Positions 3,464 through 63,869 of a stretch of DNA of 64,000 nucleotides are shown here, piece after piece. Source of the stretch: an uncultured cyanobacterium (GTDB taxonomy: Bacteria > Cyanobacteriota > Cyanobacteriia > Cyanobacteriales > CAWUOF01); contig CAVUSO010000001.1 of NCBI GenBank assembly GCA_963744145.1, positions 224,001-288,000 on the forward strand, read 5' to 3'. Each line of letters starts with the position of its first letter. Within the stretch, counting starts at the first letter, position 1. The notes under the pieces were generated by a model. The model made no database searches. It saw only the letters and a list, made by a program, of their open reading frames with translations, and was not told the origin of the DNA. Both the position numbers and the translations under genes were made by a program.

Positions 3464-5035
3464 TCATTTATGGATGATTTTTTGGTTACCATATATAGCT
3501 ATAGCTTGTCCAGGTGGTACTTCTAGATTACTGAAACCATTTGCTGACACTGTGATCATATTACCAGTACAATTTTGACCATCTTTAGTTAATTCGCCCG
3601 TAATAATATTACAATATAGTCCTGGTGACAATCCAGTTTGTAATCTATGTTTTAAAGCAAAATTCTCTTTATTAAGAGCGACAAAACCTTGATTACCTCG
3701 ACTAAAAGCAATTTGATTATTACCGTTACTCCACCAGTTAGAAATATAAAAATCTGTGGCTGTATAATTGCGAAATTCTACCATATTAGCGATCGCCGTT
3801 TGTCGATGTTCACAAATCCATCTCGAAAAGCAATTCCGACTATTATTTTTGTCCCTTCGACTACGCTCAGGGTAAACGTAAATATCCAGAGTGTTACCAA
3901 AAAAATCCGCCGGAGGTCCTTGATCACGCTCTTTAAAATCATAACTAGACATAATTTGCGGATATCCATAGGGCCAAGCTAACATAAAAATATTAGCTAG
4001 TGTATATAGTTGACCGTCTTTATAAGTAAGCACATGATGACTGACCCGATCTGCACGTTGGTTATCGTGGTTATCAACAAAGACGATCGCTTTTTGGCTA
4101 GGAATAAATCCATTAGTTAAGCCAAATTTCTTTAAAGATGCTAGTTGACTATATCGGAAAATATCGCTTAATTGTACACTATATTTAAATTCAGTTACAC
4201 TACCATTAGGAAAATATTCGGAAGCTTTGATCGGCTCATTACCATGATCAATTACTTCTTGATAAATAAAAGCTGGGTGATGCAGGAGCCGAAAAATAGC
4301 TTGGAGATCATTACTAGCAATATGTTTAGCCGCATCAATCCGAAATCCAGCTACTCCCAAGGTTAATAAATCATTCAGATAATCAGCTAAACGCGATCGC
4401 ACATATTCAGAGCTAGTATCAAGATCGGCTAAATGCACCAATTGACAATTTTGCACTTCCCAACGGTCTTGATAATTTTGGATATCATCATTACCATGAC
4501 GATGACAATGATGGAAATCTTTAAATGAATAAATTCCCGGATATTCATAACGACCAAACCAAGAACCAGCAAAGCCAATCTCAGTTTGTCCAGGTTCTAA
4601 AACTCCCGTAGTATGATTAAGCACCGCATCAACATAAATATCAACTCCTACTGCTTTACAGCGTTTTACCATATCCACAAATTCGGCGCGATTTCCACTA
4701 CGACTTGCAATTTTATAACTTACAGTTTGATAACGTTCATACCAAGGATTACCTATAATAACTCGATGTTCATTTACTGGTGAAACTTGAACTGCGGCAA
4801 ATCCTTTCGGACCAAGAAAATTCTCACATTCCCGGGCGATATCTGTCCATTTCCATTCAAATAAATGCACAAAAACTGTACGGTTTTTTTTAATTACTTG
4901 ATCAGACTTAACAGTTTCAGCAATACTAGATTGATCGGAAGCATGCTGTAAAGTTTGGTTGAAATAATTTTTGTCATAACTAAATATTACCAGTAAAAAA
5001 CTGGCCATAACCATCAAGAATATTTTTTTCCCCAT
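3464..5035 (-). CDS. Secreted alpha-amylase (GH13) with a 24-nt in-frame insertion
   Basis: VHLFEW, DAVLNH, GFRIDAAKH, QEVID, FVDNHD catalytic regions; hydrophobic N-terminus. Confidence 0.92.
   Translation of the reverse strand: MGKKIFLMVMASFLLVIFSYDKNYFNQTLQHASDQSSIAETVKSDQVIKKNRTVFVHLFEWKWTDIARECENFLGPKGFAAVQVSPVNEHRVIIGNPWYERYQTVSYKIASRSGNRAEFVDMVKRCKAVGVDIYVDAVLNHTTGVLEPGQTEIGFAGSWFGRYEYPGIYSFKDFHHCHRHGNDDIQNYQDRWEVQNCQLVHLADLDTSSEYVRSRLADYLNDLLTLGVAGFRIDAAKHIASNDLQAIFRLLHHPAFIYQEVIDHGNEPIKASEYFPNGSVTEFKYSVQLSDIFRYSQLASLKKFGLTNGFIPSQKAIVFVDNHDNQRADRVSHHVLTYKDGQLYTLANIFMLAWPYGYPQIMSSYDFKERDQGPPADFFGNTLDIYVYPERSRRDKNNSRNCFSRWICEHRQTAIANMVEFRNYTATDFYISNWWSNGNNQIAFSRGNQGFVALNKENFALKHRLQTGLSPGLYCNIITGELTKDGQNCTGNMITVSANGFSNLEVPPGQAIAIYGNQKIIHK
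3853..3876 (+). mobile_element. 24-nt small dispersed repeat (SDR-like) inserted in the amylase gene
   Basis: CCCTTCGACTACGCTCAGGGTAAA, identical to the insertion at 27695-27718; removing it restores ...DIYDKN... Confidence 0.8.
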
Positions 5036-27694: not shown

Positions 27695-27718
27695 CCCTTC
27701 GACTACGCTCAGGGTAAA
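27695..27718 (+). mobile_element. 24-nt SDR-like element inserted in array unit 6
   Basis: Sister units read GCTG^GTTTG; this one has CCCTTCGACTACGCTCAGGGTAAA at the caret with no duplication. Confidence 0.9.
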
Positions 27719-35510: not shown

Positions 35511-35921
35511 TTTGTAGTAGGGAATGAGAGTCCCCTAATGCTCAATATTTGAGGGAAGACAGCCCTGACTACAAACAAATATTTTTGACTTTCGCTTTCT
35601 TGTCTAATACAGCCTATTCCAGGTTTATGAAGTTCATCAAGGTGATCTGTGGGGCAGGGCGGGTTCATTAATACCTCGACTACCCTTCGACTACGCTCAG
35701 GGCAAGCGCTCGGCACAAGGGTTATTTGTGTGTGGCAAATTCAACGGTGAACCCGCCCCTACAGGGATTCACCAAAAAATCGATCAGGATTAGAGGATGA
35801 CAAGATTAACAGGATTTGTAGGGGCAGGTGAATGAATTTATGATCACAATCAACCGGGATTTGTAGGGGCAGGTTCACCAATCAATTCTGCTCCAAACCG
35901 ATCACTATCATAAACCTGCCC
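35511..35921. repeat. Cluster of REP-like inverted repeats containing nested 24-nt elements
   Basis: GGGCGGGTTCA/TGAACCCGCCCCTAC pair, GGATTTGTAGGGGCAGGT twice, AACCTGCCC; nested SDRs at 35672-35719. Confidence 0.7.
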
Positions 35922-55561: not shown

Positions 55562-55711
55562 TTGACCTCTCCCCCAACCCCTCGACCCAGAGGAAAGGGG
55601 AGCAAGAATGATCTTTCTCCCTATCCGTAGTAGGGAAGGGGGTTGGGGGGTTAGGCGTCGCCGTGAGCGCTTGCCCTGAGCGTAGTCGAAGGGTAGTCGA
55701 ACGGTTTTTCC
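55562..55711 (-). repeat. Inverted copy of the 52079-52180 repeat, carrying two nested SDR-like inserts
   Basis: Reverse complement of 52079-52180, with 55656-55704 inserted between GGTTAGG and TTTTTCC. Confidence 0.8.
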
Positions 55712-60371: not shown

Positions 60372-60848
60372 TTAATCGGTAATTTGGACACTACCAACGA
60401 GAATCAGACAAAGGAGACGGTCGATCGCTTTGCAATCTTCTTCAGTGATCGATTCATCTAAAAGTGCAGCGGTGATTCTATACCAATCAGACTTTCTCAC
60501 TGTCTGGGTTGTCCCAATATTGGCCACAATTTGGTTAACTTTTGCCCTGATTGTCCCCTGAGTAGTCCCCTGAGTAGTCCCCTGAGTAGTCCCCTGAGCT
60601 TTACCCTGAGCTTTACCCTGAGCTTTACCCTGAGCTTTACCCTGAGCTTTACCCTGAGCGTAGTCGAAGGGGGAGTCGAAGGGGGAGTCGAAGGGGGAGT
60701 CGAAGGGGGAGTCGAAGGGGGAGTCGAAGGGTAGACTTACACTGAGGGTCGTCGAAGTGGTCAAAGGACAGGATGAAAGAGTGTACTTACACTGAGCGTC
60801 ACCGAAGTAGTCAAAGGGTAAAATCGAAGGATGGGAGATTTGAAGCAT
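60372..60848 (-). CDS. Small cyanobacterial hypothetical protein expanded by in-frame repeat insertions
   Basis: C-terminus AALLDESITEEDCKAIDRLL...GSVQITD looks like a real small-protein family; the middle is PFDS/AQGK/TQGT repeat. Confidence 0.6.
   Translation of the reverse strand: MLQISHPSILPFDYFGDAQCKYTLSSCPLTTSTTLSVSLPFDSPFDSPFDSPFDSPFDSPFDYAQGKAQGKAQGKAQGKAQGKAQGTTQGTTQGTTQGTIRAKVNQIVANIGTTQTVRKSDWYRITAALLDESITEEDCKAIDRLLCLILVGSVQITD
60541..60818 (-). repeat. Nested stack of 24-nt SDR-like elements and 12-nt half-repeats
   Basis: Six left halves (60588-60659) abut six right halves (60660-60731); further diverged copies near 60736-60759 and 60786-60809. Confidence 0.9.
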
Positions 60849-61063: not shown

Positions 61064-61507
61064 TTATTGCCATAAACCACGTAAAACTTTTAAATCGTCC
61101 TGATCAAGTTCTACTGGTGTGCCACTCCGAATCAGTTCAGAAAATTCTTCATTAGGAACCATTATACATAGTGCATATAAACGATCGCTTCCAGTATTTT
61201 CAATGACATGGGTTCCTGTGGGTGGTACTAAAATACTGTCTCCCGTCTGAATTGGTACAGTTTTACCATCACAACTAGCTAATCCTTGTCCTTTAAGAAT
61301 AAAAAATATTTCGGTTGCATATTGATGTCGATTAGGTGGAGTTTTCCCACCGACATCAAATATTTCTACACAATAGGTAATCGAAACATTAGCTGTAGCA
61401 CTATCAAAGACAATTGCTAGACGATTAGTGTCATAAGGACTAATTCGGTAAGCTTGATAATCATGAGGACACTTGATGATCGGAATCATGCAGCGAGAGA
61501 CTTCCAT
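61064..61507 (-). CDS. Cupin domain protein
   Basis: TPPNRH...EIFFILKGQG, GDSILVPPTGTHVIEN. Confidence 0.88.
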   Translation of the reverse strand: MEVSRCMIPIIKCPHDYQAYRISPYDTNRLAIVFDSATANVSITYCVEIFDVGGKTPPNRHQYATEIFFILKGQGLASCDGKTVPIQTGDSILVPPTGTHVIENTGSDRLYALCIMVPNEEFSELIRSGTPVELDQDDLKVLRGLWQ

Positions 61508-61561
61508 GATAGTGTTTCCTGATCTGTAATAATTGGTTAAACAACAATCATGGTAAGTCTA

Positions 61562-62344
61562 CTATGAAAGTTTGACTGTTTTAATCGCATCAAAGATTGC
61601 TTGAGAATTTGTGACAAACCCAAAACATTGCTTAATATTGTATATGGTGGCTTGCCAACAATATTCTGGGGATGTGGTTGCTGTACAATCTTTAACTAAA
61701 ATACAGTCATACCCTAAACAGTTAGCATCTTGCAAGGTGGTCATGACGCATTGATCCGCGTTGACCCCACTAAATAGTAATGTGGTTTTCCCCAGATTAC
61801 GCAAAATACTATCTAATGGAGTATCCCAAAAACCGCTCATTCGATATTTATCTACCCGGATATCGACTGGATTGGGTATAAGTTCATCCACGATCGCAGC
61901 TCCCCAACTACCTGCCATTAATACTGTAGCACCATTGCTGGGTAAGCGATCGCCTAAACCAATTCCTGTTCCAGTCGGATTATAAACGTGATGGATGCTC
62001 GCACTAATATTCATTAAATCCGGTCGATTCCCCCAGTTTAACCAAATTACCGGGACTTGGTGCGATCGCAATTCTGGTAACAAGGTGTTTAAGGGTTGAA
62101 TCGGGGTACGAGCTGGATTAATATCTACACCGATATGAGCTAACCAACCATCTCGATGACAAAAATCATTTTGCATATCAATGATCAGAATTGCTGTTTT
62201 AGCTAAGTCTAGATGGAGGGTTTTTGTTTCGGTTGGTAAAATAATTGGATCAGGAGGAAGGGATGATCGGGTAATATCCGCGATCGTCTCATTGACTTTC
62301 CAATTATTCGGAGGTATCCCTAAATTTTTCAGTTGGTCAGTCAT
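61562..62344 (-). CDS. Isochorismatase-family cysteine hydrolase
   Basis: IIDMQNDF, KYRMSGF, GVNADQCV triad. Confidence 0.9.
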   Translation of the reverse strand: MTDQLKNLGIPPNNWKVNETIADITRSSLPPDPIILPTETKTLHLDLAKTAILIIDMQNDFCHRDGWLAHIGVDINPARTPIQPLNTLLPELRSHQVPVIWLNWGNRPDLMNISASIHHVYNPTGTGIGLGDRLPSNGATVLMAGSWGAAIVDELIPNPVDIRVDKYRMSGFWDTPLDSILRNLGKTTLLFSGVNADQCVMTTLQDANCLGYDCILVKDCTATTSPEYCWQATIYNIKQCFGFVTNSQAIFDAIKTVKLS

Positions 62345-62360
62345 AGAATGATTAGATCCC

Positions 62361-63869
62361 TTAAAAATTCTCTTTTAGATGAGTTTCACCACGACGATAC
62401 AACTCACGAGCATAATCAGTCCATGTTCCTTGTCCCCAATACCGAAAACAACTGGTTTGGACTAAAAGATTATTGAGTAATGCTTCCCGATAACGCTTTT
62501 GTTTGGTGATTGTTTCTGGATGAGGGGAATTTTTCAGGAGCGGATCAATTTTTTCATGGAATAAAGCACTGAGTTTATTCATGGGTTCCAGGACATTTTC
62601 ATATCCTTGGACCCAACTCATATTATTAGTCCAAGATGCTCCTTCCATGTGAAACTGATGGTCAGTTTTCCTTAATTCTTGAATTGCTGTTTCCACAGTT
62701 TCAGGGGAGCAATTGTCTGGACTAACTCTATCCCAAATTTTGTGTTGTCCGATCGGTTGACAAGCAGGATAATCATCAGGATTACATCCAGCAGCTTCAA
62801 TTAATTCTAAATATTCAGTACCATTAACTCCCACTACCCCAGATTTACCACCATTTTCATCCCGCATTTTGTACCAAGCTTGTCGGAAACCACTAGGAAA
62901 TTCATTCATCATCACACCCCCATTTTCACCATCACCAATTTGAGTCACAATGGAAGGGATAGAAATATTGCTAATTGTTTGTCGGGATAGGGTTTTTGCT
63001 TCGTAATAAGGTTGCATTTGAGCGACTAATTTGGTATCTGATCCTTGGGTTTTAATTAGTGCTGTAATACTGATGCTTTCTCCATGGGAATTACGAGCGA
63101 TGAGACGGTGGGGTAAGTGTTTGTAATGGAGAGAATGTCCTGCTAAAGTTTCTACTGAATGTTCTTGTACTAGCAACCAGCGATAACCACATTCCTGCAA
63201 TGCTTTAATATATTCAAACAAAGTATCGGGATGATTAGGAAGGTGCATTTCTGGAGGAGAAAATCCCTTAACTCGACTGAGTGCTTCCCAACCAAAAATA
63301 GCAGCAAAGTGGTGTTGCCATGCTAGGATATGGAGTTTGAGATCAGGAATTGGGGTAGAAGGAGCTACAGCATGACTCCACATAGTTCCCAACCATTCTA
63401 CATAAGGTTGGTAGGTGGGTTTAGTAGTAACTTCCTTGAGATTTTCCAGGATATCTCCCCGTCCCATTTGTCGCAATCCCCACAAGAGATTACCAGAATA
63501 ATCTAACATCACGCGAGGGTTACATCCTTGTTCAACTAATTGGGGAATAAATTCCGCAATCCGGGTATAACAATAAGCAAAAGATCCAGCGTTATGGTTA
63601 TCTCCAATGTGAGGATGCTCGAACATATTTTGCAGATTACTGATCGTTTCTCCATTCCCTCCTGCTGGGATGCTCGGTTGGTGCATATGGAGTGCGATCG
63701 CAAAGGATGAGGTAATATCTGGTAAGCGAAGATTAGTGTTTGGTAAAAATACAGAACGATTTTGGTTGGTGACAGCTAAAACTTCATTTTCCCACCCAGA
63801 AATATTAGGTAATCCATCAATTATTTCTGGTAATGTCGAACTGTTAGTTGAGGAGAGCGATGAAACCAT
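62361..63869 (-). CDS. Glycoside hydrolase family 57-like protein
   Basis: LHMHQP, GFSPPEM, GDGENGG, TSCFRYWG. Confidence 0.8.
   Translation of the reverse strand: MVSSLSSTNSSTLPEIIDGLPNISGWENEVLAVTNQNRSVFLPNTNLRLPDITSSFAIALHMHQPSIPAGGNGETISNLQNMFEHPHIGDNHNAGSFAYCYTRIAEFIPQLVEQGCNPRVMLDYSGNLLWGLRQMGRGDILENLKEVTTKPTYQPYVEWLGTMWSHAVAPSTPIPDLKLHILAWQHHFAAIFGWEALSRVKGFSPPEMHLPNHPDTLFEYIKALQECGYRWLLVQEHSVETLAGHSLHYKHLPHRLIARNSHGESISITALIKTQGSDTKLVAQMQPYYEAKTLSRQTISNISIPSIVTQIGDGENGGVMMNEFPSGFRQAWYKMRDENGGKSGVVGVNGTEYLELIEAAGCNPDDYPACQPIGQHKIWDRVSPDNCSPETVETAIQELRKTDHQFHMEGASWTNNMSWVQGYENVLEPMNKLSALFHEKIDPLLKNSPHPETITKQKRYREALLNNLLVQTSCFRYWGQGTWTDYARELYRRGETHLKENF

Follow-up and report, generated by a model that had tools for sequence, protein, structure and literature searches.

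The genome of this uncultured cyanobacterium carries a 24-nt element that inserts exactly, in a fixed orientation, and nests in its own copies at four registers, with the tail of the element tied to the register and its core flanking the gene of a small GIY-YIG nuclease. On balance, we favor a model in which this gene-less element would be moved as a single-stranded DNA hairpin cut by the nuclease whose gene the hairpin flanks, and in which the conspicuous stack of half-units found in the window (the whole stretch of 64,000 nt analyzed here) would have formed by two or three insertions plus slippage. The element is of a known kind, the small dispersed repeats, now with a candidate enzyme. To our knowledge, the mechanism that moves repeats of 21 to 27 nt has been open since 2008. 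How the element moves can be approached with synthetic oligonucleotides and a single small protein, since in this genome an enzyme candidate is named, the substrate strand is defined, the ends are exact, four self-target positions are known, and tail and register are linked by a rule.

The stack and its host gene

Sequence and open reading frame inspection placed a stack of 12-nt half-units on the minus strand around window positions 60541 to 60818, inside a stop-free frame of 158 aa. Its parts are listed here from the gene inward, with the basis of each call in brackets.

60372..60848, minus strand: host gene of 158 aa, a small cyanobacterial protein carrying some 93 additional in-frame codons close to the N-terminus (paralogues)
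60786..60808, minus strand: decayed sibling hairpin with an ACT/AGT stem, behind a decayed left half (sequence)
60736..60758, minus strand: another decayed sibling hairpin, directly repeating 60786..60808 in diverged form, behind a decayed left half (sequence)
60672..60731, minus strand: five identical left halves CCCTTCGACTCC of 12 nt each, encoding PFDS five times (sequence and homogeneity test)
60648..60671, minus strand: intact 24-nt element CCCTTCGACTACGCTCAGGGTAAA (sequence, motif match, and stem covariation)
60600..60659, minus strand: 12-nt right half GCTCAGGGTAAA five times without a difference, the intact copy contributing the first (sequence)
60552..60599, minus strand: four right halves of another type, GGGGACT/A, encoding AQGT once and TQGT three times (sequence)
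60540..60551, minus strand: degenerate right-half-like unit directly before the conserved domain of the host resumes (sequence)

An earlier note on this DNA had described left halves followed by right halves within a preserved reading frame, and both the arrangement and the stop-free frame were borne out by the letters and coordinates. The intact copy at 60648..60671 is the innermost and youngest insertion of the stack, and the loop base of the five left halves differs from that of this central copy. The four unlike right halves at 60552..60599 are an outer layer plus slipped or older units. Judged by their mismatches to the core, the two decayed sibling hairpins upstream of the stack are probably older, and because of their presence part of the extra units may belong to older layers. 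The focal motif is not a chance occurrence, with five matches to its 20-mer in the window versus none in 100 shuffles.

The paralogues show that the host gene is genuine and belongs to a small cyanobacterial family; its long form is a predicted product. Nine paralogues of 62 to 74 aa are encoded in the genome (E 6e-16 to 1e-10), and the leader and start codon of the host gene match one of them; the conserved domain resumes at codon 104, compared to codon 8 to 11 in the paralogues. The ten-member family is partly tandem (window 60372-60848, with paralogues at C1:3095215-3097904 and 7012643-7013346). Pfam gave no match for the 158-aa protein and a PADLOC search gave none either, while NCBIfam FliH matches to the repeat peptide were discarded as low-complexity and far below the cut-off. 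No empty orthologue was found among 30 relatives outside the genus, which matched the neighboring cupin gene or short repeat pieces only, and a word search found nothing; no empty or shorter allele of the host gene turned up in these searches. A representative-genome search returned four matches, the best of which was identical to a paralogue in the same genome. Upstream, on the strand of the host gene, window positions 61064-63869 encode a cupin, an isochorismatase-family protein, and a 502-aa protein without a Pfam match; no link between these neighbors and the element was seen.

Genome-wide, 12 of the 14 element clusters that lie in long frames add no stop, and Pfam domains were found in 9 of the 10 in-frame hosts tested. 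The element thus edits proteins, its in-frame copies being mostly stop-free and their hosts mostly having known domains. At C1:4344608-4345954, eight head-to-tail copies lie in frame in the gene of a 2Fe-2S/4Fe-4S protein, and at C1:6189069-6189440 a sibling hairpin lies in frame inside a Y1 transposase gene.

Exact insertion and self-nesting across the genome

The genome (7.7 Mb in 4 contigs) contains 229 exact 16-mer cores of the element and 187 clusters with an intact 24-nt copy. Paralogous repeats exist in filled and empty form; the two differ by exactly 24 nt, whose removal turns the filled form into the empty one and leaves no target duplication behind. Four further copies lie in the window.

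3853..3876, plus strand: single copy, in frame (antisense) in an alpha-amylase-family gene (motif match, frame and domain check)
27695..27718, plus strand: single copy located within the spacer of a REP-doublet-like repeat that also exists empty in the genome (empty paralogue)
35683..35706, plus strand: copy with tail CAAG, inserted at register 11 in a sibling hairpin with the same core (sequence)
55670..55693, minus strand: copy with tail CAAG, inserted at register 11 in another sibling hairpin (sequence)

Insertion of the element into itself leaves a left piece of k bases and a right piece of 24-k bases in mirrored order, which slippage does not predict. To test nesting, 75 of the 152 single-core clusters were used, namely those with one or more extra halves and without 15-base spacing. 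Of these simple stacks, 53 were balanced (shuffle mean 32, maximum 46), and within balanced stacks 68 of 72 nested layers summed to 24 (shuffle mean 34, maximum 49 in 100,000). Stacks of mixed register were mirrored in 10 of 11 cases, three of which came from one host family. Left and right counts were correlated (Spearman 0.79 over 112 multi-unit clusters), and 73 of these 112 clusters collapsed fully when intact 24-mers were removed, while 39 did not. Nests were also present in four of five other high-copy genomes. Self-insertion of the 24-nt element, as put forward in the earlier note, is therefore real across the genome, and the decisive evidence for it is the mirrored registers of mixed stacks elsewhere in the genome, not the focal stack.

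Within 348 events, the element was opened after base 11 in 21 cases, after base 12 in 21 (five of them focal), after base 13 in 83, and at 13+2 in 25; the midpoint, after base 12, is accordingly a minor self-insertion site. All 69 filled sites at three host-repeat sites had one sense, and antisense nests were rare (4 versus 145 sense events); they appear to be short of about 2 bases of element or host. On the gene strand the tails are TAAA, CAAG, AACA, and others. CA-type tails were found in 37 of 37 non-focal events at registers 11 and 12, and TA/AA/AG-type tails in all 83 events at register 13. This tail-register rule fails in one other genome (G220), which has register 13 with CAAG at three loci. 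The tails AACA, AACG, and AGCA were outermost in 0 of 23 cases and in the second layer in 19 (genome-wide), which suggests either a past wave of insertion or strict self-targeting. In this genome AAC and AGC tails are nearly confined to copies nested in others, whereas in Nostoc loci they are common at the hairpins that flank the gene.

REP-doublet-like repeats house 135 of the 187 clusters; many copies may therefore have travelled as passengers, and the events are not independent. Likewise, the 132 primary targets fall into 27 clusters, and their counts overstate the number of independent events. The target motif was weak (13 of 27 clusters, background 0.19). Strict fold-back pairing of tail and target was rejected as a targeting rule, being found in some junctions and not in most. 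With regard to replication strand, no strand clustering of the element was seen in 400-kb bins, and there was no usable GC skew.

A pattern of three left halves, with 38 matches here and none in 200 other genomes of the class, is not claimed as unique to this genome: on a sibling host, stacks with three such halves are present in two other genomes (G073 and G238), and most assemblies are fragmented. Nesting of the same kind was seen at 12 loci in metagenome contigs of 46 to 63% GC, for cousin hairpins whose loop is shorter or different.

Insertions and slippage in the focal stack

The balance of the focal stack depends on the boundary chosen, and its left and right halves can be counted as 6:5, 6:6, or 6:9(-10). 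The equal counts around an intact copy that the earlier note had reported hold on the 6:6 reading, for which one of the four unlike right halves has to be counted and three set aside, and do not hold on the 6:5 and 6:9 readings. Nor do they stand as proof of six insertions, since stacks of identical units are usually unbalanced and the junction is unique to the focal locus. Among simple stacks with at least two extra left halves, and with the focal stack left out, only 1 of 7 stacks of identical units was balanced compared to 14 of 15 with mixed units (Fisher p 0.0006). The junction GGGTAAAGCTCAG (register 12, tail TAAA) occurs five times in the genome, always within the focal stack.

We consider it quite probable that the focal stack was built by two or three recent insertions, added to earlier ones that are now decayed, and that its 12-nt halves then slipped. 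The five identical left halves CCCTTCGACTCC are likely an expansion by slippage. At register 12, each half amounts to four whole codons, and slippage on either side keeps the frame. A register-11 stack of identical units at C1:7471250, with 9 left and 5 right halves, is the clearest case of slippage in the genome.

That six successive midpoint insertions really took place, as the earlier note proposed, seems to us unlikely, although the counts can be read as 6:6 and mixed stacks of five layers do exist (C1:812122). Selection could narrow the types of insertion retained, because the commonest one (register 13, tail TAAA) would add a stop in the focal frame (stop test), thereby removing it there. 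Furthermore, junctions of TAAA followed by G were found as single nested insertions of cousin hairpins in other bacteria (12 of 77 metagenome hits); since they are seen in this form, a junction of the focal type can arise by insertion, which speaks against slippage at the focal locus, as does the failure to find an empty or shorter allele of the host gene. Six insertions would, however, have to combine features that are not found together elsewhere in the genome: all 16 other register-12 events carry CA-type tails and none has TAAA, and none of the 65 other TAAA self-insertions is at register 12. Moreover, the probability of five identical draws of any type from the genome pool is 0.009, only one in seven stacks of identical units is balanced, and a third homogeneous run adjoins the two runs of focal halves. 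The focal stack is, in fact, the least informative example of the element.

The earlier note had also named an assembly artefact as a condition that would undo its reading, and this is very improbable: although no piece or contig of sequencing run X1 spans the whole stack, each of the three periodic stretches is present in this run, which may be the source sample and whose contig depths do not equal copy number, in the form of 42-nt pieces with depths (6.2, 9.5, and 8.7, versus 2.9 for a single-copy piece) near the 1.3, 3.2, and 3.3 times expected from the assembly, the contig carrying the stack is 7.6 Mb long without N, and the frame is kept across about 93 codons.

The hairpin, a candidate nuclease, and known systems

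On the plus strand of the window, the intact copy reads as a 4-nt foot, a CCCT/AGGG stem, and a GCGNAG(C/T) mini-hairpin core. Stem pairs covary around a fixed 12-nt core (CCT/AGG 61, ACT/AGT 28, GTT/AAC 24, and GCT/AGC 16). Read on the strand opposite the host gene, this core is GA-GCGNAG(T/C)-C-GA; the base that varies freely in it corresponds to N in the GNA loop, and the chief variant besides (14 of 241) is A/G, which on the other strand is T/C opposite G. GCGNAGC is described as an exceptionally stable DNA mini-hairpin with any N in the accessible part of PMC13037366. Because the core on this strand matches that mini-hairpin and its variable positions fit, the substrate is probably single-stranded DNA of the strand opposite the host gene. 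Standard DNA folding indicated no unusual stability (z 0.06 and -0.38), and no Rfam family matched above its gathering score.

Six GIY-YIG matches were found in the genome. One of them is a stand-alone 115-aa gene at C1:140287 (PF01541, above the cut-off), with 8 cores of alternating orientation within 600 bp. A core lay within 500 bp of 23 of 25 close homologues of this nuclease versus 0 of 14 control loci, and in a scan that overlaps the former in part (identical rows) the core flanked a small GIY-YIG gene at all 41 cyanobacterial loci and at 10 of 39 loci from elsewhere, the reversed control giving 0 of 80. In a survey of 250 genomes belonging to the order, 12 of the 22 genomes with at least 50 cores had a close homologue, compared to 12 of the 228 others, the cut-off of 50 having been set after the counts were seen and related genomes not being independent. 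Seven of the 22 high-copy genomes had no nuclease match and three a distant match only; in G073, with 290 cores, the homologue carries a stop. Tyr5, Tyr15, Arg25, His29, and Glu62 were invariant in six of six aligned sequences. A homologue tree made with a quick method (59 of 93 branches open, no SsnA row) was used for labels only. In the openly accessible literature, we found no paper that ties the 12-nt core to a GIY-YIG gene.

Going by these associations, the 115-aa nuclease is likely the enzyme that moves the element. It would bind the hairpin while the DNA is transiently single-stranded. The strand bound would be the one opposite the host gene, on which the element would present its 4-nt foot, a 4-bp stem, two G.A pairs, and the GCGNAG(C/T) mini-hairpin. 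Nicks would then be made at the ends of the element and at exposed, purine-rich target sites, among them hairpin loops, including that of the element itself. The 24-mer would be joined without duplication by host ligase or by the nuclease, giving exact insertion in one orientation into other repeats, genes, and the element's own loop, and slippage could later lengthen runs of identical units. The anatomy of the insertions and the association with the gene are observed, whereas cutting and joining are proposed by analogy with SsnA; the joining step is the weak point of this mechanism. GIY-YIG enzymes are known as hydrolases. For SsnA, a GIY-YIG protein that shares the size and gene layout of the candidate, cutting is demonstrated and joining is not in the accessible part of PMC11893778.

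A stronger form of this proposal, which we hold only tentatively, makes the single-domain GIY-YIG protein, of about 100 aa, the transposase of a single-stranded 24-nt DNA element: the protein would bind the GNA mini-hairpin and cut and rejoin the DNA without duplication, while the 4-nt foot would set the register. If true, the smallest known mobile DNA would gain the enzyme it has been missing and the GIY-YIG fold a new chemistry, and nested stacks would record the order of insertion waves.

Somewhat less probable is movement by a RAYT or other HUH Y1 transposase through single-strand transfer, with the GIY-YIG gene merely sharing the hairpin as a neighbor or regulator. A strand-specific, duplication-free insertion and a 4-nt foot that lies 5' of the hairpin fit the logic of IS200/IS605 and REP elements, 17 Y1 matches are present in the genome, and the residence of 135 of 187 clusters in REP-doublet-like repeats also fits. 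The discussion in PMC11893778, in its accessible part, bears on the same logic. However, no Y1 gene was bracketed by core arrays: within 600 bp, 2 of 14 Y1 loci had any core, as isolated insertions. As judged from the accessible parts of PMC3116915 and PMC3733652, the element resembles REP/REPIN-RAYT systems in that an enzyme gene is bracketed by inverted short dispersed hairpins. In contrast to those systems, the enzyme here is GIY-YIG and not HUH Y1, the unit is a single 24-mer and not a doublet, REP doublets serve as targets, and the foot of the hairpin has no GTAG or CGTC tag.

Least probable of these, and doubtful in our view, is a scheme with no dedicated joining enzyme, in which host repair would copy in the 24-mer by template switching (or from a short RNA) at nicks, guided by weak likeness of the targets to the element's own end. 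Downstream flanks are pyrimidine-rich and, resembling the beginning of the element itself, have C as their first base in 17 of 27 clusters; three head-to-tail arrays of the element are present in the genome. Yet the ends are exact at four registers, with no base lost or doubled in 68 of 72 layers, and the best-matching target, the element's own start, was rarely used (3 arrays versus 83 register-13 events). The conserved motif is, moreover, that of a DNA mini-hairpin, which was less stable as RNA for the variant tested in the accessible part of PMC13037366.

Returning to the GIY-YIG nuclease as the favored enzyme, the closest described parallel is SsnA, a single-domain GIY-YIG protein that cuts one strand of single-stranded DNA near its own hairpin (Chenal et al. 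2025, PMC11893778, accessible part). As in that system, a single-domain GIY-YIG gene of about 100 aa (here 115 aa) is flanked by a dispersed hairpin, the candidate nuclease is below 150 aa with catalytic Tyr, Tyr, and Glu, gene and repeat load go together, and unpaired bases lie 5' of the stem. Unlike it, the SRM pattern overlapped 0 of 325 cores, and no SRM was found within 500 bp of 110 homologue loci. Precise insertion and nesting are evident for our element, whereas for the NTS hairpins mobility is put forward solely as a hypothesis in the accessible part of PMC11893778. The element thus has what looks like an Ssn/SRM layout and fails the SRM pattern, and we do not file it as Ssn; the supplements of that paper may list the clade of the candidate nuclease.

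The small dispersed repeats SDR1-8 of Nostocaceae, reportedly described by Elhai and colleagues in 2008, are said to be hairpins of 21 to 27 nt with covarying stems that reside in other repeats and insert into their own copies, giving nested arrays. We know of no enzyme for them. The likeness to small dispersed cyanobacterial repeats pointed out in the earlier note is upheld: our element is a 24-nt dispersed repeat of a cyanobacterium (187 clusters), within the size range of SDRs, with precise insertion, empty sites, and a hairpin backed by compensatory stem changes. It differs in the link between its core and a GIY-YIG gene and in that core loci beside GIY-YIG genes also occur in Bacteroidota, Chloroflexota, and Pseudomonadota. 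Since the same core is common in Nostoc loci, the element may be one of the described SDR families. In their accessible parts, PMC4390886, PMC5861425, PMC3116915, and PMC2884548 cite the SDRs of 2008 or mention them in one line.

The nearest solved relatives of the nuclease are UPF0213 GIY-YIG proteins (PDB 1ZG2 and 1YWL; E 4e-12 and 4e-10), named only as hypothetical proteins. The hairpin upstream of the nuclease gene (C1:140120-140275) bears a stack of its own, one copy of which is antisense.
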